64,000 bases of DNA, from NCBI GenBank assembly GCA_018669005.1, contig JABJAL010000034.1:2298-66297 (forward strand), read 5' to 3'. A program made the position numbers and the translations under genes. The notes below the pieces were generated by a model. The model searched no databases and was not told the DNA's origin. It saw nothing but the letters and a program-made list of their open reading frames with translations. Positions 26,661-38,434 of the stretch are shown one piece after another. How positions within the stretch are numbered: the first letter of the stretch is position 1; each line of letters opens with the position of its first letter. The DNA comes from Nitrospinaceae bacterium (GTDB lineage Bacteria; UBA8248).

Positions 26661-27272
26661 GTGGCAATTCCCGAAAAGTTGGCTTCGAAAAAAGCGTTTA
26701 CGACTTTTGAAGTGGCCGAGATATGTGATGTGACTCCTGTAACGATCCAAAACTGGATCGACAAAGAATGGCTCCGTGCCTACAGGACACCGGGTGGCCA
26801 TCGACGTGTTCTTCGTGAAGATCTCATGGCTTTCCTTGAGTCAAGGAATATCCCGCATATTTTCAACGAGCGCACTGGTCCGCCAAAGGTGCTTGTGGTC
26901 GATGATGAAAAGAATTTCACTGAGTTGATCCGGGATATCTTGCTTTTGGATAACTCAGAGTATGAAATTGAGATAGCTCACGATGGGTTCCGGGCCGGGT
27001 TGTTATATGCCAATAACAAACCCGATGTTGTTTTGCTCGACTTGATGCTTCCCGGAGTGGATGGTTTTGAGGTTTGCCGCCAGATTAAACAAAGTGGCGG
27101 CGGCTCGAATACAACGATAATTGCCATAACAGGCCTGGACGATCCCAGTCATAAAGAGCGGATCATGAACCTGGGCGCCTCGCACTTCCTCCAGAAGCCG
27201 GCCGATACGGCGCAAATCAGAGACTTGGTTCGCCAATCAGTGGAGTCAAGAGTTTCCGGGACCTCTTCCTAG
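26661..27272 (+). CDS. response regulator with N-terminal excisionase/MerR-type HTH and C-terminal receiver domain
   Basis: HTH_17-like FTTFEVAEICDVTPVTIQNWI...YRTPGGHRRV. REC domain (VLVVDDE...LLDLMLPGVDG...KP). GC about 49%. Preceded by a ~310-bp AT-rich region. Confidence 0.6.
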   Translation: MAIPEKLASKKAFTTFEVAEICDVTPVTIQNWIDKEWLRAYRTPGGHRRVLREDLMAFLESRNIPHIFNERTGPPKVLVVDDEKNFTELIRDILLLDNSEYEIEIAHDGFRAGLLYANNKPDVVLLDLMLPGVDGFEVCRQIKQSGGGSNTTIIAITGLDDPSHKERIMNLGASHFLQKPADTAQIRDLVRQSVESRVSGTSS

Positions 27273-27400: not shown

Positions 27401-28291
27401 TTAGTTGTCCTCGCCCGAATCTTTGCCTCGACCACGCTCGCGCAGAAACCGCTCGACCTCACGAGCTAGATCTTCTCCCGAGGGCAGGCCTCCCGAGGGG
27501 TCCTCATCCTCGTTCTCATCCTCGCTCCGGAGTTTGAGTTCCTCCACATACTCTTTTACTGCCTTGTTCGATTCGAGGGCCTGATCAACCTTATCGTCGA
27601 AATCGATGGAGCCCATTTCCAACTCAGAAACACTAACTTCGATTTGGAGAAATTCGTTCAGGCGGCGGACTAGGGCTAGAGCTGCCTTAGGATTTGGCGA
27701 AACGTTGACGTAGTGAGGGACGTTCGCCCAGACGCTCACGGCAGGCAGGTTCTCATCGCGGAACAGATTATTCAGGATGCCGACGATCCCGGTGGGGCCT
27801 TCATAGCCCGATCGTTTGAGGCCCAATCGGGTAGCGAGCTCGATATTGGTCGAGGAGCCGGTGATGCGTACCTCGCTTCTGTGATAGACGTCGGCGAGGA
27901 GCGCGCCCAATGTCACGGCCATCCTGACGTCGCACTTTTGTGCGAGGGAATGAATCATTCTCGTGAATAATTGCCACTGAAGATGAGGTTCGACTCCGAC
28001 AAAGAAGATTAAATCGTTTGCTAGTTGAGGGGTGCGGCAAGCATAAAATGTATTTGTGGGCCAGGTAATCTGGCGTTGTCCTTCAGCGTCCAAGCTCACC
28101 AAGGGACGAGCGTCTTGGAAATTGTGGAAATAATCAGAGTCGATGGAGGCGAACTCCGAGCCCCCAAGTTCCTCTGAGATATAGGTCGCTGCAGTTGTCG
28201 CGGCACTACTGGCGTCGTTCCACCCCGAAAAGGCTAGCACCAGGGTGGGGTTTCTGAGTTCCGGTATCTCTTGAATTTTAAGATATTCCAT
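27401..28291 (-). CDS. PAC2 (proteasome assembly chaperone-like) family protein
   Basis: LVLAFSGWNDASSAA N-terminal motif and an acidic C-terminal tail. Family call from memory of bacterial PAC2 proteins. Confidence 0.45.
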   Translation of the reverse strand: MEYLKIQEIPELRNPTLVLAFSGWNDASSAATTAATYISEELGGSEFASIDSDYFHNFQDARPLVSLDAEGQRQITWPTNTFYACRTPQLANDLIFFVGVEPHLQWQLFTRMIHSLAQKCDVRMAVTLGALLADVYHRSEVRITGSSTNIELATRLGLKRSGYEGPTGIVGILNNLFRDENLPAVSVWANVPHYVNVSPNPKAALALVRRLNEFLQIEVSVSELEMGSIDFDDKVDQALESNKAVKEYVEELKLRSEDENEDEDPSGGLPSGEDLAREVERFLRERGRGKDSGEDN

Positions 28292-28582: not shown

Positions 28583-29383
28583 TTGCCAGTGAATACCTTG
28601 AATGAAACTGAATCGCATTTTCAGGGCAAGGTTGCTTTGATCACTGGTGCCTCGCGAGGTATTGGCGCGGCCGTGGCGAGATGCCTTGCCCGGGCGGGGG
28701 TGGATTTGGTGATCAATCACCGCGAGGGCCGGGGTCGCTCGGGTAAAATGGCCGAAGAGTTGTGCCGCGAAGCTGAGGCGGAGGGCGTACGCGCCATAGC
28801 GGTTCCTGCTGATATTGCAAAAAAAGATGCGGTCGAGGCCCTATTCACCAGGGCCGAAGAAGAATTTGGTCGCCTAGATTTTCTTGTGCTCAACGCCGCC
28901 CGCGCTCCTTTTAAGCCGTGGGAAAAACTTTTGGAGCGCGATCTCCGCCAACTGGTAGATACGAATTACTTGGGCAACGTTTTTTGCATGCAGAAGGCGA
29001 TTGCCCCTCTTTCCAGGCGGGGTGGGGCCGTTGTGTTTCTTTCGAGCCTGGGAAGCCGGTTTGTTAATCCGGACTATCCATTAGGCTCGATGAAGGCGGC
29101 GATGGAGTCAGCCGTGAAGTATTGGGCAGAAAGCTGGGGCGAGCAGGGCATTTCGGTGAACGCTGTTTGTGCCGGTCTGGTGATGACGGATTCGTTCAAG
29201 ACGCTCCGGATGGTGAACCCGGACCTGGAGAACCTGCCTGAGCGGTTTTTTCTATCGCCCGAGGAGGTTGCCGGGGTGGTCCAGTATCTGTTGGGGCCAG
29301 CGAGCGGGGTCATACGGGGGCAGACGGTGGTGGCCGACAAGGGTGTGAGCAACCGCCTACTCTGGCCATCCCCCCCAGGATGA
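28583..29383 (+). CDS. SDR family oxidoreductase (first gene of FAS/PKS-like operon)
   Basis: TGASRGIG Rossmann motif, NAA, and Y-x5-K (YPLGSMK). TTG start with aaggtaagg RBS. Confidence 0.7.
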   Translation: MPVNTLNETESHFQGKVALITGASRGIGAAVARCLARAGVDLVINHREGRGRSGKMAEELCREAEAEGVRAIAVPADIAKKDAVEALFTRAEEEFGRLDFLVLNAARAPFKPWEKLLERDLRQLVDTNYLGNVFCMQKAIAPLSRRGGAVVFLSSLGSRFVNPDYPLGSMKAAMESAVKYWAESWGEQGISVNAVCAGLVMTDSFKTLRMVNPDLENLPERFFLSPEEVAGVVQYLLGPASGVIRGQTVVADKGVSNRLLWPSPPG

Positions 29384-29537
29384 TGCATTCTTGCCTCCCC
29401 CGGTCCCGAAGTTGCACATTGCCGGGCAGAGCGTTTTAATGCAGGTCTAATGTCATGGTTGATATTGATATGGGGTCCGGGCGGTTGTCTTATCCCTTTG
29501 ATAATAGGACATTCATAAGAGGCACGAGGAGAAACAA

Positions 29538-30095
29538 ATGGCGCAGAACATGATCAGTGAAGAGCGGATCATGCAGGAAGTCTTCGACGCAATCGTTCAC
29601 ACCACCGGTGTGGACAAGGACACGATTACCCCGGATAGCTCGCTTGTGGAAGATCTGGATGTCCTGTCTCTTGATTTTCTCGATGTGAATTTTCGGCTAG
29701 AGCAGGTCTTCGGTATCAAAATGGCCCGCAGCTTTGTTCTTGAGCATGTCGAGGAAATGTTTGGCGAGGGTGTGGCAATAGATGAGAACAACGATGTCAC
29801 TGAAAAGGGTGTCGAAATTCTAAAGTTGCGCCTGACTGAGGCGGCGAACGATCTCGATCCGGGAACCCCTGTCGATGAACTTCCGGCCCTCGTTACCTCC
29901 CGAACGCTTGCAGCGGGTGTTGGTGACATTCTTGCCCACTTGCCGGACAAGAGCCCTGCCGGGGTGGACTGGAAAACGGAGGACGGCACTCACATTGTCT
30001 GCTCTGAAACCGGCAAAGCCCCTGTGTTGCCCAGCGGCGATGATGTGATCCAGAACTGGCTGAAATCTCTCCAGGAAGAAAAACAAATCTTCTAG
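29538..30095 (+). CDS. acyl carrier protein with ~100-aa C-terminal extension
   Basis: ACP core aligns to the canonical pattern (LDVLSLDFLDV vs LGADSLDTVEL), with the Ser conserved. Followed by a non-ACP C-terminal half. 185 aa. Confidence 0.55.
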   Translation: MAQNMISEERIMQEVFDAIVHTTGVDKDTITPDSSLVEDLDVLSLDFLDVNFRLEQVFGIKMARSFVLEHVEEMFGEGVAIDENNDVTEKGVEILKLRLTEAANDLDPGTPVDELPALVTSRTLAAGVGDILAHLPDKSPAGVDWKTEDGTHIVCSETGKAPVLPSGDDVIQNWLKSLQEEKQIF

Positions 30096-30125
30096 TTCAC
30101 TCGCCGCCCTGTTTTACCTCGGGAG

Positions 30126-31445
30126 TTGCCCTCGATGGCACGGCCCCAAAAACGTGTCGTAGTTACCGGCTACGGGATGATGACTCCCCTCGGGGGAGAT
30201 GTTGCCTCCAGTTTCGATGCGGCGCGCGAGGGAAAATCCGGCATCGACTATATCCGCCTTTTCGACCCGGCGAAGCTGCCCTGTCAAATTGCTGGTGAAG
30301 TGGACGACGCCTGGATTGAGGCACGCGAGGTGCCCTCCCACCGCAAACTTCTAAAATTTGCCACGCGTGGCGTCCGGATGATGCTTACAGCTACGGGAGA
30401 GTCCGCGAGCCACGCTCGCCTTAGCGAGATTGCTGATCGCTCTCGCATTGGGGTCGCGATCGGATCGCATGGCGAGCACCCTGATATTCCCCAGATGATT
30501 CAACTATTCCGCCAGTGGCGCCCGGGTGGTGGCTCCCCCTGGGAGGGCCATTGGGACTTCAGCGAGCTATTTAATTCGGGTGGCTACGATTTCCTTCAGT
30601 TCTATCGGCGAAAAATAGATGTGGCCACTTCTGTAGTGGCGACAGGGTTTGATGCCCAAGGACCGACGATTTCGGTTTGCTCGGCCTGCGCGGCGGGTGG
30701 GCAGGCAGTGGGCGAGGCACTTCGCTTGATTCGCGACGGGAAGGCGGATGCGATGATCGCGGGTGGTTGTGAATCTGCGATCTCCTATGCCGGTTTTTTT
30801 GGTTTCGTTCTCCTGACAGCGCTTGTTGAAAAGTACGAAACGCCACAGATGGCCTCGCGCCCCTTCGACCGGCGGCGAAACGGTTTTGTCATGTCTGAGG
30901 GCGCTGGCTCTTTAGTGCTTGAGGAACTTGAACACGCGCTGGCACGAAAAGCGCCAATTTTGGGCGAGGTGCTAGGCTACGGCGATTCGGCTGATGCTTT
31001 TCGCATTACTGACATGCACCCCAAGGGAGCCGGAGCCGTTCTTGCGATGCGTGGGGCGCTCGCTGATGCAGGCATTTCTATCGAAGATGTGGATTACATT
31101 AATGCGCACGGTACATCGACTCCTAAAAATGATCTCACCGAAACGACTGCGATTAAACAAGTGTTCGGCGATAGGGCGAGTAGCATTCCGATAAGTTCGA
31201 ACAAATCAATGGTCGGGCACACTATTGGAGCGGCGGGCGCAGTTGAGGCAATCTTCTCTCTTGAAGGAATGCGCCGCTCGGAGATTCTTCCCACAATTAA
31301 CTACGAGAACCCGGACCCGAAGTGCGATCTGGATTATGTTCCTAATGAAATGCGTCCCTCCGAGCACCGGGTTGTCTTGTCGAACAGCTTTGGTTTCGGC
31401 GGACAAAATGCCTCGCTTTGCTTTGGCCGCTACGAGGGTGAGTGA
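30126..31445 (+). CDS. beta-ketoacyl-ACP synthase (KS alpha-like, FabF family)
   Basis: Active-site Cys (SVCSACAAGG) and both His motifs (NAHGTSTPKND, VGHTIGAAG). Confidence 0.85.
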   Translation: MPSMARPQKRVVVTGYGMMTPLGGDVASSFDAAREGKSGIDYIRLFDPAKLPCQIAGEVDDAWIEAREVPSHRKLLKFATRGVRMMLTATGESASHARLSEIADRSRIGVAIGSHGEHPDIPQMIQLFRQWRPGGGSPWEGHWDFSELFNSGGYDFLQFYRRKIDVATSVVATGFDAQGPTISVCSACAAGGQAVGEALRLIRDGKADAMIAGGCESAISYAGFFGFVLLTALVEKYETPQMASRPFDRRRNGFVMSEGAGSLVLEELEHALARKAPILGEVLGYGDSADAFRITDMHPKGAGAVLAMRGALADAGISIEDVDYINAHGTSTPKNDLTETTAIKQVFGDRASSIPISSNKSMVGHTIGAAGAVEAIFSLEGMRRSEILPTINYENPDPKCDLDYVPNEMRPSEHRVVLSNSFGFGGQNASLCFGRYEGE

Positions 31446-32689
31446 ACTCGATGTCTACTACTTTTGCCGTCACAGGAGGCGGAATAGTCTCTGCGGCGGG
31501 AAGAGGTGTGGACGTCGCATGGGAGTCGCTTTGTAAGGGTGAAAGTTTTCTCGCCCTGGATGTTGATCCCGGCCTCTCGGGTTTTGCGCCGATAGCCTCG
31601 GCGCGATGTGCTGCCATTGACCCTGAGGAACTTGGTGCTGATCGACGCGCCGCACGAATCATGGGGCATCAAACCCACATGTTGCTCGCTACGGTATCCG
31701 AGGCGATTAAAAAATCAGGTAAAGACATTGGCGGCGAGGAGACAGCTTTTTTTGCCGGAATGGATTCGGTAGACCCTGAGGAGGGCGATCTCGTTTCCGC
31801 TGCGCTGTCCGCGCGCAAGGAGGGCGGCGTTGATTTGGATAAATTTTATGACGAGGGGATGGCGCAAATTCCGCCGCTCTGGCCGCTCGGAATGCTCAAT
31901 GCCATTGGGTTCTGTCAGGTGGCGATTCAGTTCGATTTGCGGGGCGAGAACGGAACATTCAGCCCGGGACCTGAGGCCGCTAGTCGGGCCTTGATTGAGG
32001 CAGCCGAGTCCTTGCGAGAGGAAAAGGCGGGGGTCGCGCTGGCCGCCGGGGTGAGCCCATCTGTTTCGGCTCGCTCCGTTGCCCGCTATATCAATCGTGG
32101 ATTCTTGCCTGTATCAGGTGATGGTCAATTTCCCCGTCCTTTTTCGGGTGCTGGTGTCGCTGCACTGGGAGAGGGCGCAGGCGTTTTGTTGATTGAGTCC
32201 GGGAAGGCCGCAGCGGCGAGAGGGGCTGCTAGCATGGGATTTTTGAGAGGGTGGGGTCGAGCCACCGCTCTCGATGAAGGTGCAGGGCTCAAAGAGGCGA
32301 TTAAGGATTCGATTGGCGTGGCGCTAGGATCGGCTGGATTAAGCCCTGGCGATGTGGACCTCGTGGTGGTTCACGGTGCGGGACATCCCGATGAGGATGA
32401 GGCCGAGGCTGCGGCGTTGTTAAGTGTATTTGGCGCGCGCCGCCCGTACGCACTTGCGACAAAGGGCGCCCTTGGTCATCTTTTAGGGGCCTCGCCAATT
32501 GTGGATTTGTTGCTGGCGCTCCGAGCGCTGGGTGAGGGTGTTGTATTGCCGAGCCCGGGGGTGGGCGAGATGGGGCAGGATGCCCTTGAGTTTTCGGATG
32601 TTCCCGTGGCCGCCGAAATGAAAAGGGCGCTAGTTTTGTCGAGAGGATTTGAGGGCTCATGTGCGGCGTTTTGTGCTAGCGCGGCATGA
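31442..32689 (+). CDS. ketosynthase-like chain-length-factor (KS beta/CLF) paralog lacking active-site Cys
   Basis: KS fold throughout, but the active-site Cys position reads LRGENGTFSPGP. Overlaps the upstream KS by 4 nt. Confidence 0.65.
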   Translation: MNSMSTTFAVTGGGIVSAAGRGVDVAWESLCKGESFLALDVDPGLSGFAPIASARCAAIDPEELGADRRAARIMGHQTHMLLATVSEAIKKSGKDIGGEETAFFAGMDSVDPEEGDLVSAALSARKEGGVDLDKFYDEGMAQIPPLWPLGMLNAIGFCQVAIQFDLRGENGTFSPGPEAASRALIEAAESLREEKAGVALAAGVSPSVSARSVARYINRGFLPVSGDGQFPRPFSGAGVAALGEGAGVLLIESGKAAAARGAASMGFLRGWGRATALDEGAGLKEAIKDSIGVALGSAGLSPGDVDLVVVHGAGHPDEDEAEAAALLSVFGARRPYALATKGALGHLLGASPIVDLLLALRALGEGVVLPSPGVGEMGQDALEFSDVPVAAEMKRALVLSRGFEGSCAAFCASAA

Positions 32690-32728
32690 AACGATTATCT
32701 GGTCATTGTTTTATCCGAGGAGAGAGAT

Positions 32729-33190
32729 TTGCGGTTCCTCTACTTTGATCGCATCACCGAGGTTGAGAGCGGAAAGCGAGTCAGCGGGGTAAAGACGTTC
32801 CCGTTGTCCGAGGCCTATCTCAAGGGGCATTTTACCCGAGCGCCTCTGATTCCGGGCTCGATTCTGATCGAAGCCATGGCTCAGATCACGGGCTGGCTCA
32901 TTGTCTATACCCACAAATGTGAGACGGCCTGCGTAATTTCGCTTATCAACAACGTCAAGGTGCCCATCGACCTTCGGGCGGGGACGACGGTGGATATTCA
33001 CGGTGAAATACTCGACACCGATAAACGCTGGAGCCGGTGCCGTGCGTGGGTGGAGCGCGATGGCGAGACGATTGCGAGCGCGGATCGATTTTTGTTTCCA
33101 CATTTCAAAGAGCCATATCCTGAGGAAACGGCCCAACGGTTTCGCCATTTGGGCTGGCTTGAGCCCCGCTGGGACTGGGAGGCATCGTGA
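32729..33190 (+). CDS. FabZ/FabA-like 3-hydroxyacyl-ACP dehydratase (hotdog)
   Basis: LKGHFTRAPLIPGSILIEAMAQ matches the FabZ catalytic motif. Confidence 0.75.
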   Translation: MRFLYFDRITEVESGKRVSGVKTFPLSEAYLKGHFTRAPLIPGSILIEAMAQITGWLIVYTHKCETACVISLINNVKVPIDLRAGTTVDIHGEILDTDKRWSRCRAWVERDGETIASADRFLFPHFKEPYPEETAQRFRHLGWLEPRWDWEAS

Positions 33191-34458
33191 GCGAAGTTCA
33201 CATCACCGGTATGGGCATGGTGACAGCCCTCGGTTCAGATTTGGAGACCGCATGGAGCAAAGCGCTTCGGGGTGAATCTGGTGCGCGAGCGGTTTCTTCT
33301 TTCGAGGCCGGGCGTCTTCCCATCGCGGGGGCGGGCGAGGTGTCGCTGGAGGAACTCGCCGCTCTCAAAGAGCGGCTTCCGGAGGAATACGCTGGCGAGG
33401 GGGAGCGGCGTGTGCTGTTCGCCCTCGATGCCGCGCAGAGTGCACTTGAGGATGCGGGATTGGCACTAGGAGAGGCAGATCCTGTGCGCTCGGGCGTGCT
33501 GATGGGAACCGGATTAAGTTCCTATCGCCTAGAGGATTTTGCTGCCTGGATTGGCGAGGATGATAAATTTGATACTACCCGTTTTGCGGTCGAGATCGAG
33601 AAGACCCATCCAGCGGGATATTTTCGAAATCCGCCAGAGCGGGCCACCTCGCTGATTTCTAAGTGGGCCGGCTTCAGAGGCCCATCGGCTACGATGACTT
33701 CAGCTTGCGCAGCAGCCGGGCAGGCCATTGGCCTTGGCATGCGTATGATTCGCCGGGGAGAGGCCGACGTTATCCTCTGCGGCGGGGCGGACTCGATGAT
33801 CCATCCTGTCGGGATGGCGATTTTTCTACTCCTTGGCGCAGCGACGACCACCGACGCCCCACCTGAGAATCTTTGTCGCCCCTTTGACAGGAGACGCTCG
33901 GGCCTGGTGGTTGGCGAGGGGGCCGGGGTGCTGGTTCTTGAGTCAGCCGAGCATGCCTCTCGGCGCGGGGCGAGGGTCTATGCCAAACTGTCTGGCTACG
34001 GGTCGAGCATGGATGCCTATCAGGTGACAGCGCCCGATCCAAAGGGAAGGGGCGCTGCACGCTCGATGAGTGAGGCGCTTCGTGATGCTGGGATGGCCCC
34101 CGAGGATATCGCTTATGTAAATGCCCATGGGACGGGAACGAAGCTTAATGATCCAGCCGAGACGCTGGCGATTAAAGAGGTGTTCGGCCCTTGGGCGGAA
34201 AAACTCGCTATCAGTTCGAGCAAGTCGATGATTGGCCATCTTATTGCGGCCTGCGGTGCGCCCGAGTTGATATTCACCACGCTCAGCGTGGCTCGCGATG
34301 AAGTGCATCCCACTCTGAATCTGGAAAACCCTGATCGCAAGTGCGATCTTGATTATGTCCCGAACGAGTCACGCAAGATGGCGGTTCCCGCCGCGATATC
34401 GAACTCGTTTGGTTTTGGTGGCCAGAACGTGACTCTCGTTGTCAGAAAGGCGGCATAG
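33187..34458 (+). CDS. beta-ketoacyl-ACP synthase (FabB/FabF family)
   Basis: MTSACAAAGQA active-site Cys, NAHGTGTKLND and IGHLIAACGA His motifs. Confidence 0.85.
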   Translation: MSEVHITGMGMVTALGSDLETAWSKALRGESGARAVSSFEAGRLPIAGAGEVSLEELAALKERLPEEYAGEGERRVLFALDAAQSALEDAGLALGEADPVRSGVLMGTGLSSYRLEDFAAWIGEDDKFDTTRFAVEIEKTHPAGYFRNPPERATSLISKWAGFRGPSATMTSACAAAGQAIGLGMRMIRRGEADVILCGGADSMIHPVGMAIFLLLGAATTTDAPPENLCRPFDRRRSGLVVGEGAGVLVLESAEHASRRGARVYAKLSGYGSSMDAYQVTAPDPKGRGAARSMSEALRDAGMAPEDIAYVNAHGTGTKLNDPAETLAIKEVFGPWAEKLAISSSKSMIGHLIAACGAPELIFTTLSVARDEVHPTLNLENPDRKCDLDYVPNESRKMAVPAAISNSFGFGGQNVTLVVRKAA

Positions 34459-35211
34459 ATGAACATTGATTTGAGCGGAAAGGTGGCGCTTGTAACCGGA
34501 GGCGGGCGCGGCATAGGGCGTGCGTGCGCTCTGGCGCTCGCGGCGTCGGGCGCACAGGTGGCGATCAACTACAGCGCCTCGCAAGAAGCGTCCGAGGAGG
34601 TGAAGGCCGAAATTGAAAAGGCCGGTGGCCGGGCCGAGTGCTATCAGGCGGATGTCTCCTCATTCGAGCAGGTCGAGGCCATGTTCGAGAAGGTGAAGGA
34701 GGATTTTGGCACGCTGGATATTCTGGTGAACAACGCAGGTGTCATCAAGGACACGCTTTTGCTACGTATGAAGCCTGCCGACTGGGATAAAGTTATCGGG
34801 GTGAGCCTGAATGGCGTTTACAACTGCACGAAAATGGCGGCCGAGATTATGATGCGCGCGCGCACAGGGTGTGTCGTGAATATTTCCTCGATCATTGGAA
34901 TCATGAGTGGTGGCGGGCAGACGAACTATGCCGCCGCCAAGGCGGGGGTGATTTCATTCACACGGGCCTGCGCGGCTGAAATGAGCGGGCGCGGGCTGCG
35001 CTTCAACGCCGTTTTGCCCGGTATGATTGAAACCGACATGAGCGAGGTTGCCCGAAAACACGCGGGCGATAAAATTATGGAGCGAATTCCTTCGAAACGG
35101 TTCGGGCAGCCAGAAGATATTGCCGGTATTGTCGTATTTCTCTCCTCGTCGGCGTCGAGCTACATCAATGGCGAGGCGATTACAGTTGACGGCGGCATGC
35201 ACATCGGTTGA
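34459..35211 (+). CDS. fabG: 3-oxoacyl-ACP reductase FabG
   Basis: TGGGRGIG, NNAG, and S...Y-AAAK catalytic tetrad (NYAAAKAG). Confidence 0.85.
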   Translation: MNIDLSGKVALVTGGGRGIGRACALALAASGAQVAINYSASQEASEEVKAEIEKAGGRAECYQADVSSFEQVEAMFEKVKEDFGTLDILVNNAGVIKDTLLLRMKPADWDKVIGVSLNGVYNCTKMAAEIMMRARTGCVVNISSIIGIMSGGGQTNYAAAKAGVISFTRACAAEMSGRGLRFNAVLPGMIETDMSEVARKHAGDKIMERIPSKRFGQPEDIAGIVVFLSSSASSYINGEAITVDGGMHIG

Positions 35212-35227
35212 GGAGCGGAGAATTAGA

Positions 35228-35635
35228 GTGCGTTTGTATCAGGGCGTTGATTTAATAGAGATTGATCGGATTAAGGTGGCGCATGATCGCCAAGGGGCTT
35301 TCGGAAAAGATATTTTTACGGAGGCCGAACTGGCATATTGCAATTCTCGGCCCGATCCGTATCCGCATTTAGCTGGGCGCTTTGCGGCCAAGGAGGCATG
35401 CCTCAAAGCCTTCGGGGTGGGAATGGGTGGATTCGGCGCCATCGGTCGTTTTCAGGAGATTGAAGTGGAATCCACGCCCTCGGGCAAACCTACTCTCCTT
35501 CTGCACGGGTCGATGGAGAAAATGCGAATGCGGCTCAAGATTGATCAGGTGACGGTTTCGATTAGCCACGCCGATAGTTTCGCTGTAGCGACGGTGATGA
35601 TGCTAGGCGCAGCCGCGGGCGTTGAGGAAGAATAA
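35228..35635 (+). CDS. acpS: holo-ACP synthase (4'-phosphopantetheinyl transferase AcpS)
   Basis: GVDLIEIDRI N-terminus, FAAKEAxxKA and SISH motifs. GTG start. 136 aa. Confidence 0.75.
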   Translation: MRLYQGVDLIEIDRIKVAHDRQGAFGKDIFTEAELAYCNSRPDPYPHLAGRFAAKEACLKAFGVGMGGFGAIGRFQEIEVESTPSGKPTLLLHGSMEKMRMRLKIDQVTVSISHADSFAVATVMMLGAAAGVEEE

Positions 35636-35650
35636 CAATGCGGGAGGAGC

Positions 35651-36106
35651 ATGATGCGCTATTTGCTGGTTGATCGCGTGACTTCATGGGAGCGCGGAGC
35701 CACCATGGTAGGCGTCAAGAACGTCACCATGAGCGAGGATTTCTTGGAATTTCACTTTCCGCGCTTTCCTGTGATGCCTGGCTCGATGATTCTTGAGGCG
35801 CTCGTTCAACTAACAGGATGGCTTGAGGCGGCGAGTTCTGATTTTTCCAGATGGTTTCTTCTTGAGCAGGTTAAGACGGTTAAATATTACGGTTTCGCCC
35901 TGCCGGGCGACCAGATTGAACTCAGAGTCGAGGCAGCCGGGGAAGATGAAGGGCTTGCTCTCTACAAGGGTCTTGCCCAGGTAGAGGGCGAGCGAAAAGT
36001 GGTGGTAGATTTTGCCGGTAGGATGGTTGATCTCAAAGACTATGAAGATCCTGCTGAGCAGGCGCACCTTTTTAAAATATTAAATCGAGAAATAACACTC
36101 TCTTAA
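35651..36106 (+). CDS. second FabZ-like hotdog dehydratase
   Basis: FLEFHFPRFPVMPGSMILEALVQ hotdog catalytic motif. Confidence 0.7.
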   Translation: MMRYLLVDRVTSWERGATMVGVKNVTMSEDFLEFHFPRFPVMPGSMILEALVQLTGWLEAASSDFSRWFLLEQVKTVKYYGFALPGDQIELRVEAAGEDEGLALYKGLAQVEGERKVVVDFAGRMVDLKDYEDPAEQAHLFKILNREITLS

Positions 36107-36119
36107 AAGAGCGGTTGAT

Positions 36120-37415
36120 ATGATGGAAGGCAGGGAAGTCTGGATTACGGGTGCCGGGATGCTCTCCCCTCTTGGGGCTGGCGTCGATGCGAATTGGGAG
36201 GGGCTTCGGTCCGGGCGGCGCGGCGTCGTTCGACAGCCTCAGCAGAATGCGGCCCCGTTTCCCGATAACTTTCTCTATTTCGGCACGGTGGCAGGTCATG
36301 AAGAGCCGCCAGAGGTGCCGCCCAATCTCAACAGCCAGAGGAAATTTCTGAACCGCTCCTCGATCCTTGGGCTCCACGCGGCCGCAGAGGCGATTGAGAG
36401 CGCAGGTGTTGATTTGCTGTCCATGCCGCCTGAGCGAAAATCGCTTTATGTCGGCTCTGGTGACTACACACGTCTTGAGTATCTCGATTTTTACCAGTCC
36501 TTTGCCGAGACCGCTGGTCCCTATTGGGGTCTTCCCGATCCAGAGGAGTTGAACGAGGTGGCGCTACATCAGGTGAACCCGTTTTATCTGCTGGAAGGGC
36601 TGGCGAATAATCTTTTCAGCTTCCTAACGGCGAGCTACGAAATTATGGGCACGAACGGGAGCATTGCGAGCCTGTCCTCGTGTGGTGCGCAAGCTCTTGA
36701 GGGTTGTGATCGGGCTCTTCGCTGGGGGAAGGCGGATCTCGGCCTGGTGGTGGGTTGCGGGTGCTGGATCAGCGCGTTGATTCGTTTCGAACTTGACGGA
36801 CTGGGAATACTTTCCAGAGCCCACGATGGAGTCGACTCGTTCAGGCCACTGGACAGGCGGCGCGATGGGTTTTTCCCGTCCGAGGGGGCTGCTGCTCTGG
36901 TGCTAGAGGTGGCGGAGGTTGCAGAGGCGCGAGGCGCAAAACCAATTGGAAGAATACTGGGCACGGGAAATTTTCAGGAAGTTTCGTCGGGTGCCCATAT
37001 CTCGGTGCCAGGCGATTCTGTCAGCCGAGCGAGCCGGGCGGCGATGGGCGAGGGCGATAAGTCCCCCACCGACCTTTCTTTTGTCCTTCCGCATGGGAGC
37101 GGCACCAAAAAGGGAGATCGCGCCGAAATGCGGGCGCTCAAGGAATTTCTGAGCGGGAGCGAAGTGCCCCTTGCAGCCTGGAAACCCCATACGGGCCACA
37201 TGGGTTCGGCTAGTGATGTGGGTGAAATGATTCTCGGTCTCAAGGCGCTCCGGGAGGGTGCTCTTCCACCTACCCTGGGCTTCGAGACGGCTGAAAAAGA
37301 ATTCGACAATCTCGATATCGCTGCCGAGGAAAGAGTGATCGAGGGGGACTCGTTTCTTTCGCTGAGTCATGGCCTTGGCGGCCAGTCTTCCGCCACACTT
37401 TTATCGGCACCGTGA
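36120..37415 (+). CDS. third beta-ketoacyl synthase-family protein
   Basis: KS N-terminus (VWITGAGMLSPLG), Cys (SSCGAQ), and His motifs (LPHGSGTKKGD, TGHMGSASD). Divergent from FabF/FabB. Confidence 0.7.
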   Translation: MMEGREVWITGAGMLSPLGAGVDANWEGLRSGRRGVVRQPQQNAAPFPDNFLYFGTVAGHEEPPEVPPNLNSQRKFLNRSSILGLHAAAEAIESAGVDLLSMPPERKSLYVGSGDYTRLEYLDFYQSFAETAGPYWGLPDPEELNEVALHQVNPFYLLEGLANNLFSFLTASYEIMGTNGSIASLSSCGAQALEGCDRALRWGKADLGLVVGCGCWISALIRFELDGLGILSRAHDGVDSFRPLDRRRDGFFPSEGAAALVLEVAEVAEARGAKPIGRILGTGNFQEVSSGAHISVPGDSVSRASRAAMGEGDKSPTDLSFVLPHGSGTKKGDRAEMRALKEFLSGSEVPLAAWKPHTGHMGSASDVGEMILGLKALREGALPPTLGFETAEKEFDNLDIAAEERVIEGDSFLSLSHGLGGQSSATLLSAP

Positions 37416-38434
37416 GTCCGGTAGTCGGGCGGGCCGCGAAGCCCCGCAAAAAACGACGCCGTAGCAAGGATAAAAGCCCCCTTCAGCAGAATGCTGAATT
37501 TTTCGCTGTCTTTGGTGCCCTCTCGATCATTCGATGGATCCCGCTCTGGTTGTGTAATATCCTCGCCAGACTTGTCGGGGCTGCTGTTTTCCAGCTAGCT
37601 CCACGTCGCCGAAAAATTCTTCTGAATAATCTTGAAATCGCATTTCCAGACATGAGCGAGGACGAGCGGGCCCGTATGGCGCGGGCGAGTTGTCGCTCGT
37701 TTGTGCTGACCGGGCTTGAAAGCGTCAAGTATCTCTACCGTTTTCGAATCGATGACGCGGAAAAGGAAGTTCGCCGGATGATCGATGGGGTGGAGTCTGT
37801 TTTCGATCAAGCGAGGCAGCTGCACGATGAGGCGGGTGGGTGCATTTTCGTAGTGCCTCATTTGGGTAACTGGGAGCTTATCGTGCACGGTGCCACAATT
37901 GCGCGAATACCAGTGACGGTTGTTGTGAGACCTCTCGACAATCCGAAACTAGAAAAACATCTATTCGAGATGCGCTCAGGTTCAGGGCAAGAGATTCTTG
38001 CAAAGCGAAATGCGCTCTTCTACCTCAGGACAGCACTACGAAAGGGAAGATCGGTTGGTCTGCTGGCGGATCAGCATGCCGGGATGAAGGGAATCGACGT
38101 GCCGTTTTTCGGGAAACCAGCGAGCACCACGACGGGACCTGCTGCCCTCGCCATTTCCTTTGGTCGCCCGATTATGCTGGTTGCTTGTGTGCGAAAGCCT
38201 GGAGGAGGAGCATATGAGGTGCTTTTGAGCGACCCGATTGTGCCCGACACAGAGGCGGAATCGCTTGTTGAGATCGAGCGGCTGACGACGCTTATGAACG
38301 TAGAGATTGAAAAGTTTGTCCGTAAATGCCCGGATCAATATTTGTGGCTGCACGATCGCTGGAAGCTAACGAAACTTTGGGGGCGATCGGCAGAATTTCT
38401 TGCGGAAAAAGAAAAAGAAGAAAAAAACGATTAA
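37412..38434 (+). CDS. LpxL/HtrB/MsbB-family lysophospholipid (lipid A-type) acyltransferase
   Basis: N-terminal TM helix, HLGNWE (HX4E/D) catalytic motif, and C-terminal QYLWLHDRWK signature. Confidence 0.75.
   Translation: MSPVVGRAAKPRKKRRRSKDKSPLQQNAEFFAVFGALSIIRWIPLWLCNILARLVGAAVFQLAPRRRKILLNNLEIAFPDMSEDERARMARASCRSFVLTGLESVKYLYRFRIDDAEKEVRRMIDGVESVFDQARQLHDEAGGCIFVVPHLGNWELIVHGATIARIPVTVVVRPLDNPKLEKHLFEMRSGSGQEILAKRNALFYLRTALRKGRSVGLLADQHAGMKGIDVPFFGKPASTTTGPAALAISFGRPIMLVACVRKPGGGAYEVLLSDPIVPDTEAESLVEIERLTTLMNVEIEKFVRKCPDQYLWLHDRWKLTKLWGRSAEFLAEKEKEEKND

Follow-up and report, generated by a model that had tools for sequence, protein, structure and literature searches.

An expanded acyl carrier protein of Nitrospinaceae and other bacteria and its genomic links to lipid A genes

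Acyl carrier proteins (ACPs) are among the most conserved small proteins known, and extended forms of them have already been described. AcpXL, which is longer than a standard ACP, is specialised for the very-long-chain (C28) fatty acid found in rhizobial lipid A, and AcpM, the mycobacterial meromycolate-extension ACP (115 aa), is a very-long-chain carrier whose C-terminal extension is a flexible segment of about 35 residues. The present analysis concerns a 64,000-nucleotide stretch of contig JABJAL010000034.1 from a Nitrospinaceae bacterium (the whole stretch is hereafter called the window), in which positions 29538..30095 of the plus strand encode a 185-aa expanded ACP, named ACPx here. The product is a single genuine acyl carrier protein with a large conserved non-ACP part. 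By a species-level genome scan (one genome per species), ACPx was found to be encoded in at least 196 genomes, from Nitrospinota, Tectomicrobia, Nitrospirota, NC10, Desulfobacterota and other taxa, and this family, in which about 120 additional folded residues and an ancestral zinc ribbon are present, seems to have escaped notice. ACPx is proposed, with moderate confidence, to be the dedicated acyl carrier of a specialised pathway resembling fatty acid synthesis (FAS) of type II, in which an LpxL-family enzyme would move the chain to an envelope glycolipid, most likely lipid A. Such a pathway would represent an uncharacterised route to envelope lipids in the Nitrospinaceae, which are the principal nitrite oxidisers of the sea, as well as in several little-studied phyla.

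Among the described carriers, AcpXL (PDB 2KW2/3LMO) is the closest to ACPx both in sequence (E 1.6e-8 with the single sequence, and 7.5e-12 to 2KW2 when a profile of 100 family sequences was compared with solved ACPs) and in fold (ranks 1-3), and the AcpXL model PRK06508/NF005079 (93 positions) is the best NCBIfam match. The two proteins share an SLDFLD motif in helix II and an FGIK turn, and both exceed the length of a standard ACP. On the other hand, AcpXL (approximately 93 aa) keeps the DSL motif and, unlike ACPx, has neither the zinc ribbon nor the 45-residue insertion. AcpM is also among the top PDB matches; however, in contrast to its tail, the additional module of ACPx is confidently predicted to fold (residues 65-185 modelled alone by AlphaFold2: predicted local distance difference test score, pLDDT, 92.7; predicted template modelling score, pTM, 0.79) and appears to include an insertion inside the ACP fold. 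No ACP with both an internal insertion and a zinc ribbon was found to be described in PDB, Pfam, NCBIfam or the searchable literature, and nothing relevant was returned by literature searches on zinc-ribbon ACPs and on Nitrospina ACPs or lipid A.

A carrier protein with a conserved extra part

The ACPx open reading frame (ORF) is intact; it starts with ATG, a GAGGAG ribosome-binding site lies 7-8 nt upstream, and its product is acidic throughout (isoelectric point 4.2). The exact sequence is present in NCBI as MBT3350864.1, 'hypothetical protein [Nitrospinaceae bacterium]', from Nitrospinaceae metagenome-assembled genomes (MAGs). When it was searched as a single sequence, its match to the Pfam PP-binding family PF00550 was confined to residues 15-70 (E 3.8e-4; 21.1 bits, gathering cut-off 20.8). 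Alignment by hhalign placed residues 1-60 of canonical ACP on ACPx residues 8-67 with a probability of 98.5%. Helices I-II (residues 5-65; 29550..29732, +) contain the LSLDFLD motif, in which Ser44, the predicted phosphopantetheine attachment site, is encoded at nt 29667-29669 (TCT). Ser44 is invariant in 100/100 family members and Leu45 is nearly so (90% or more). The initial annotation of this gene had described a conserved Ser in an LSL rather than a DSL context, which is correct since the residue before Ser44 is Leu in ACPx and E/L/Q/T across the family (Asp in 1/100). D46, D49 and E55, also invariant across the family, correspond to D38, E41 and E47 of canonical AcpP, with which ACPx has in common an acidic character and a Ser on helix II. 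However, ACPx differs from AcpP in the absence of Asp before the Ser, in a near-invariant Arg53 on helix II, in Gln/Val where AcpP has Glu48/Glu49, and in its 2.4-fold length. It had also been proposed that residues 1-85 form the four-helix ACP core. The presence of an ACP core has held up, but every sequence match to a known ACP ends just past helix II and the FGIK turn, at residue 63-67, and the Foldseek matches to ordinary ACPs likewise cover only helices I-II, so that a four-helix core within residues 1-85 is not demonstrated.

One alternative is that the C-terminal half is an artefact, either a neighbouring ORF that has been frameshifted or fused or a disordered tail without function. The weak single-sequence Pfam match, with its confinement to the N-terminal region, and a few short C-terminal-only proteins in a search of representative proteins might be taken in this sense. 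However, homologues (n=107; 37-94% identical to ACPx) are nearly all 185-191 aa long. Each of the 80 loci listed from the genome scan matches ACPx along practically its entire length (residues 4-182 or more), and the 100 aligned homologues are likewise full-length. Column identity is 0.60-0.69 in all regions of ACPx, residues 65-185 being as conserved as the ACP part, and the ratio of nonsynonymous to synonymous substitution rates (dN/dS) is approximately 0.1 for residues 86-185 when compared with the nearest relatives. Prediction of the full 185-aa structure, which had been suggested as a check, gave one compact and confident unit (AlphaFold2; pLDDT 91, pTM 0.85, no segment below 50). By comparing a profile of residues 65-185 with 1.84 billion representative proteins, 106 clusters were found in which the module occupies approximately residues 65-185 of 175-205-aa proteins, and no other architecture was detected in this set beyond fragments and one junk ORF. 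The few short C-terminal-only proteins are consistent with contig-end fragments, and the only long fusion, an apparent 1187-aa protein (P0281), was rejected as a poly-Arg read-through artefact. Thus, no frameshift and no consistent splitting of homologues, either of which had been named as a sign that the C-terminal half is a separate ORF, was found, the module keeping a fixed position in full-length proteins. An artefactual C-terminal half is refuted by the conservation and selection data, and its probability is practically nil.

The AlphaFold2 model contains helices at residues 8-23, 44-58, 67-75, 89-103, 112-118, 121-132 and 167-182, a beta turn between residues 75 and 89, and a hairpin with strands at 145-147 and 153-155. 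With moderate confidence, these elements are interpreted as ACP helices I-II, an insertion of approximately 45 residues, helices III-IV at about residues 112-132 (DELPALVTSRTLAAGVGDIL), and a C-terminal extension of approximately 50 residues. The earlier layout of an 85-residue ACP followed by a 100-residue tail should therefore probably be replaced by an insertion between helices II and III plus a C-terminal extension. Residues 112-132 are favoured as helices III-IV because AcpXL structures align over 123 columns of the ACPx model in the fold search (versus approximately 58-64 for ordinary ACPs), because the next-best hhalign placement puts residues 40-75 of canonical ACP on ACPx residues 91-130, with 110-130 preferred (non-significant, E 0.66), and because remote family members keep at this position an ITV-type cap, which is typical of helix IV. 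Splicing of candidate segments onto residues 1-63 and rescoring against ACP models gained 2-9 bits, several splices performing alike, and was ambiguous. On the DNA (plus strand throughout), the insertion (residues 65-112) corresponds to 29730..29873 and comprises helix 67-75 with LEHVEEMFGEG, the most conserved motif of the family, the beta turn and helix 89-103. The probable helices III-IV (residues 112-135, DELPALVTSRTLAAGVGDIL; placement moderately supported) correspond to 29871..29942, and the hairpin (residues 136-160) to 29943..30017. The linker and C-terminal helix (residues 161-185; 30018..30092) carry the GD(D/E)...W motif, in which G167 and D168 are invariant and W174 is conserved at 90% or more, and which is also kept in remote members.

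Further analysis indicated that the hairpin is derived from a zinc ribbon. A CxxC...CxxC pattern is present at ACPx residues 139-158 in 60-62 of 100 relatives, and these relatives give many matches to zinc-ribbon Pfam families, all of them sub-threshold. ACPx itself has S139, a deletion, C155 and T158, so that one of the four Cys remains and a Cys4 zinc ribbon is absent. The two forms are cleanly divided between clades: all 27 loci of the window's clade (Nitrospinota/Tectomicrobia) have LSL and none (0/27) has the Cys4 zinc ribbon, whereas all 53 other loci (Nitrospirota, NC10, Binatia and Desulfobacterota) have ESL and 52/53 have the Cys4 zinc ribbon. From this clade split, and with Cys155 as the sole survivor, the hairpin of ACPx is presumably a degenerate zinc ribbon without zinc; it is still modelled at pLDDT 88-92. 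The family may thus offer a clean evolutionary case in which a zinc site was lost and the fold was kept. The earlier statement that the additional residues have no recognisable domain is incomplete: residues 65-185 have no match in Pfam or NCBIfam, no significant match to PDB sequences and no match to PDB folds, but most relatives carry a Cys4 zinc ribbon that is degenerate here. The LysW/ArgW amino-group carriers are also small, acidic proteins with a Cys4 zinc ribbon, and one Cys4 relative of ACPx matched Zn_ribbon_LysW (E 0.2). This is an analogy only, as LysW/ArgW carry their substrate on a C-terminal Glu, use no phosphopantetheine and have no significant similarity to ACPx.

Several additional features of the ribbon were observed. 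Cys155 persists in 97/100 sequences, including those that have lost the other three Cys, and the loss of Cys4 in marine lineages could represent a zinc-sparing variant. The window's clade also changed from ESL to LSL at the attachment site. Remote zinc-ribbon ACPs of approximately 200 aa (loci L086, 10001-11020; L088, 1266-5023; and L089) keep ESLD, FGE, ITV, CxxC..CxxC and GD(D/E). They are located in other clusters with ketosynthase (KS), FabH-like or short-chain dehydrogenase/reductase (SDR) genes, and one of them is followed by an ordinary 96-aa ACP.

The operon and its holo-ACP synthase

ACPx is the second gene of an operon of 11 tightly packed genes on the same strand (28583-38434, +). 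The first gene encodes a FabL-like SDR reductase (28583..29383), a putative enoyl-ACP reductase with a match to Pfam adh_short_C2 (1.4e-48), whose best NCBIfam match is FabL (178 bits, under the cut-off of 328); the spacing of its Tyr and Lys residues is unusual (Tyr-x5-Lys), between classical SDRs (Yx3K) and FabI/FabL (Yx6K). ACPx is followed by the FabF-type ketosynthase KS1 (30126..31445; NCBIfam PRK07314, 427.6 bits, above the cut-off of 387), which completes an SDR-ACPx-KS1 trio. Next come a ketosynthase homologue resembling a chain-length factor (CLF; 31442..32689), with the N and C domains of Pfam ketoacyl-synt and Gly/Pro in place of the active-site Cys, a first FabZ/FabA-like dehydratase (32729..33190; Pfam FabA 2.6e-12; NCBIfam FabZ 68.5 bits, under the cut-off), and a second FabF-type ketosynthase, KS2 (33187..34458; PRK07314, 403.7 bits against the same cut-off of 387). 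The remaining genes encode a FabG-type 3-oxoacyl-ACP reductase (34459..35211; TIGR01830, 295.7 bits versus a cut-off of 297.75; PRK12826.1-2, 255 bits, above the cut-off of 222), an AcpS-type holo-ACP synthase (35228..35635), a second FabZ/FabA-like dehydratase (35651..36106; Pfam FabA 3.3e-19; NCBIfam FabZ 91 bits, under the cut-off), a divergent ketosynthase homologue, KS3 (36120..37415), and an LpxL-family (Lip_A_acyltrans) acyl-ACP-dependent acyltransferase (37412..38434). The last protein matches Pfam PF03279 (2.7e-52); it contains the motif HLGNWE (HX4E), and a hydrophobic anchor is present at its N-terminus. An alignment with the E. coli FabF reference showed an intact Cys-His-His triad in KS1 and KS2, and Ser in the canonical Cys column of KS3, with a Cys two residues later. 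Since the CLF-like protein and KS3 lack Cys in this column and KS1 and KS2 have the triad, the sequences suggest that the operon holds two KS/CLF-like pairs (KS1/CLF and KS2/KS3). A scan for promoters and terminators across the operon found sites no more frequently than expected by chance.

The presence of a holo-ACP synthase gene with a GTG start inside the operon, as initially reported, was borne out, the 135-aa product scoring above the cut-offs of both TIGR00516 (83.7 bits versus 59.8) and TIGR00556 (86.8 bits versus 45.35). The best 120 homologues of this AcpS extend down to 46% identity, and both of those sampled, at 49-50% identity, come from the same type of cluster; the clade is taken to be cluster-specific. 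It resembles canonical AcpS in its trimeric type and length, and the catalytic residues D8, E58 and K62 are kept in the window enzyme and 100% conserved among in-cluster AcpS proteins, in which Arg14, Arg21 and Arg53 are also kept. It differs from canonical AcpS at Arg24, which is replaced (by Ala in the window enzyme and 91% of its group), and at Arg28, which is not conserved: Asp occupies this position in the window enzyme and in 87% and 75% of the in-cluster AcpS proteins of the two groups. These positions were read from an alignment with B. subtilis and E. coli references whose numbering agrees with PMC3447402. According to that article, which cites Parris et al. 2000 on this point, Arg28 is 'crucial for ACP-AcpS binding'; the article also describes a contact between ACP Asp35/Asp38 and AcpS Arg14 as orienting Ser36. 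ACPx has no equivalent of Asp35. It was also observed that the LSL group has Arg at AcpS position 14 and the ESL group mostly Lys, a difference that may reflect co-variation with the carrier.

With Arg28 changed to Asp and Arg24 replaced in AcpS, and with the Asp35 equivalent absent and Arg53 and Gln/Val present in ACPx, the docking surfaces of both the carrier and the enzyme appear to be altered, as would be expected of a private pair of a carrier and its phosphopantetheinyl transferase (PPTase). If so, this may be a natural orthogonal carrier/PPTase pair, which could be useful for pathway engineering. The initial annotation had suggested that the unusual carrier needs its own PPTase. The association is indeed conserved, AcpS being present in 38/42 extended clusters (described below), and docking residues are altered in both partners; on the other hand, in 18/60 loci ACPx has no AcpS within 10 kb, so that co-location is not obligatory.

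Links to lipid A and the proposed pathway

Comparison with other genomes indicated a conserved context. ACPx is followed by KS1 in 76/76 loci and preceded by the SDR in 71/72. Among 60 loci with at least 9 kb of downstream sequence, 42 have the extended cluster, and the remaining 18, mostly from Nitrospirota, have the trio only or a partial cluster. An LpxL-family acyltransferase is present in 39 of the 42 extended clusters. In 12 distinct trio-only loci of Nitrospirota, the trio is located directly downstream, on the same strand, of lpxD-fabZ-lpxA-lpxI-gnnA-gnnB (full or in part). ACPx is therefore tied to lipid A genes by two independent routes, through the terminal PF03279 acyltransferase of the extended clusters and through the lpx adjacency of the trio-only loci. 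A comparable arrangement is known from the rhizobial cluster acpXL-fabZXL-fabF2XL-fabF1XL-adhA2XL-lpxXL (PMC11901934), which has FabZ-like, FabF-like and LpxL-family genes in common with the window operon.

In the proposed pathway, the in-operon AcpS would transfer 4'-phosphopantetheine from CoA onto Ser44. Malonyl loading would presumably be performed by a housekeeping FabD encoded elsewhere, because the operon encodes no acyltransferase for that step. The two KS/CLF-like pairs, FabG, the two FabZ-like dehydratases and the FabL-like reductase would then build an acyl chain on ACPx, and the terminal LpxL-family acyltransferase, with its HX4E motif and membrane anchor, may take this chain over from ACPx and attach it to a glycolipid of the envelope, most likely lipid A, in a manner analogous to the rhizobial AcpXL/LpxXL very-long-chain system. 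In the model, the approximately 120 extra residues and the ACP helices form one compact body, which would make the carrier orthogonal to the housekeeping AcpP. The extra residues might provide private docking surfaces for the cognate KS, reductase, acyltransferase and PPTase and/or a larger shelter for a long chain, although any specific role of the module can be assigned only tentatively.

Several observations weigh against the lipid A pathway. ACPx is not an AcpXL orthologue, since it scores 47.8 bits against the AcpXL equivalog cut-off of 83, and only profile positions 6-58 are aligned. The window operon also differs from the acpXL cluster in its additional CLF-like subunits, FabG, FabL-like reductase and AcpS, and in lacking an adhA2XL-type dehydrogenase. 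The acyltransferase falls under every NCBIfam cut-off, the best being PRK06553 (148.9 bits versus 273). In addition, the 18/60 loci with ACPx have no AcpS within 10 kb, and neither a canonical acpP nor a second acpS was detected in the 64-kb window or the fetched loci, where approximately 20 kb per genome was covered and the absence is uninformative. Finally, KS/CLF pairs together with two dehydratases and a lysophospholipid acyltransferase (LPLAT)-type acyltransferase also resemble clusters of the aryl polyene (APE) type.

This last resemblance points to another possible product. APE clusters and the window operon have in common a stand-alone ACP, a KS with an inactive CLF-like partner, paired FabZ/ApeI-like dehydratases, a ketoreductase and an LPLAT-type acyltransferase, and the operon might accordingly make a different outer-membrane or secondary lipid, such as a polyene or APE-like pigment or another acylated lipid, with the LpxL-family enzyme acylating a lysolipid and ACPx still serving as a dedicated carrier. 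The failure of the acyltransferase to reach any lipid A equivalog cut-off would fit such a product, as would the lipid-export genes (MlaC-MMPL-OEP) that adjoin one related locus. However, APE ACPs are approximately 80 aa long, and no aryl-acid adenylating (aryl-starter) enzyme, methyltransferase, thioesterase, glycosyltransferase or LolA/MMPL gene was found in the operon or the window flanks. The operon has instead an enoyl-reductase-type (FabL-like) reductase, which suggests saturated chains, the trio-only loci adjoin lipid A genes, and the nearest carrier is AcpXL. A product of this kind is therefore considered unlikely, though by no means negligible.

The conserved trio also raises the question of whether ACPx is simply the housekeeping ACP, in which case SDR-ACPx-KS1 would be a fabL/fabG-acpP-fabF core and AcpS the sole general PPTase. 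The gene order does mimic fabG-acpP-fabF, KS1 and KS2 pass the FabF subfamily cut-off, FabG lies at its equivalog threshold, and the trio of Nitrospirota adjoins fabZ-lpxA. The lack of a canonical ACP in the sequence examined would also agree with this, but it is not evidence because only approximately 20 kb per genome was examined. On the other hand, the recognition surface of helix II has changed (Asp is missing at -1, Arg53 is present, and Gln/Val replace Glu48/49), AcpS lacks Arg28, CLF-like subunits and an LpxL-type transferase occur in the same operon, and fabH, fabD and plsX are missing from it. To our knowledge, moreover, a canonical AcpP of approximately 80 aa is universal in bacteria with type II FAS. 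A housekeeping function is thus improbable.

Even less probable, and indeed very doubtful, is a role of the minimal trio in cofactor synthesis, for example of pimeloyl-ACP for biotin, with the larger operon as a later elaboration. An analogy exists in the Desulfovibrio vulgaris cluster DVU2560-2563 (PMC10102598), and a class I/II aminotransferase that may be BioF-like lies 3 kb downstream in one Magnetobacterium locus. However, the window and most loci contain no bio genes, four KS homologues and a lipid acyltransferase are encoded in the window operon, and no Desulfovibrio relative is among the named matches of ACPx.

The lipid A pathway can also be formulated in a stronger form, which is speculative and unlikely to hold in all its parts. 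ACPx would then belong to an undescribed class of carriers, a single domain of approximately 20 kDa that combines an ACP with a helical insertion and a zinc ribbon. Together with a co-evolved, charge-reversed AcpS (Arg28Asp), it would be insulated from housekeeping FAS. In nitrite oxidisers and in many uncultured Nitrospirota, NC10 and Desulfobacterota, the system would provide lipid A or the outer membrane with an acyl chain of an unusual kind (very long or functionalised), the marine Nitrospinota version being zinc-independent. If this were true, the Cys4 and zinc-independent forms would be analogous to the C+/C- ribosomal proteins.

In addition, a number of minor observations were made on individual loci. 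In Nitrospirota, L002/L003/L058 (1382-7092 and 13477-15306), as well as L031, L047, L051 and L067, have the trio just downstream of skp-lpxD-fabZ-lpxA-lpxI-gnnA-gnnB. In L002/L003/L058, which represent one Nitrospira genome, the trio is followed by a 609-aa B12-binding radical SAM protein that resembles BchE, HpnJ and ladderane radical SAM enzymes (all matches under the cut-off), and a weaker homologue is present in L046. In L074 (11876-16085), from Candidatus Magnetobacterium casense, the genes after the trio encode a Wzx-like flippase, an NAD-dependent epimerase/reductase and a class I/II aminotransferase; the last could be of the alpha-oxoamine synthase type (BioF/SPT-like) and hints at a different fate of acyl-ACPx. 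In L084 (11284-16150), the MlaC, MMPL and OEP lipid-transport genes are divergent and adjoin the LpxL-family gene of the related cluster; MlaC-like matches also occur in L033, L034, L061 and L078. L004 and L005, contigs of the same MAG (ODZ_NOB7a), have one ACPx copy each, both 83% identical to that of the window, and these could be assembly overlap, strain variants or a true duplication.

In the window itself, the operon is flanked by unrelated genes (PAC2, response regulator, NAD kinase and a thiamine pyrophosphate enzyme). Immediately 5' of the operon are a PAC2-family (proteasome-assembly-chaperone-like) gene on the opposite strand (27401-28291, -) and a response regulator with an N-terminal HTH_17/MerR-like domain (26661-27272, +).

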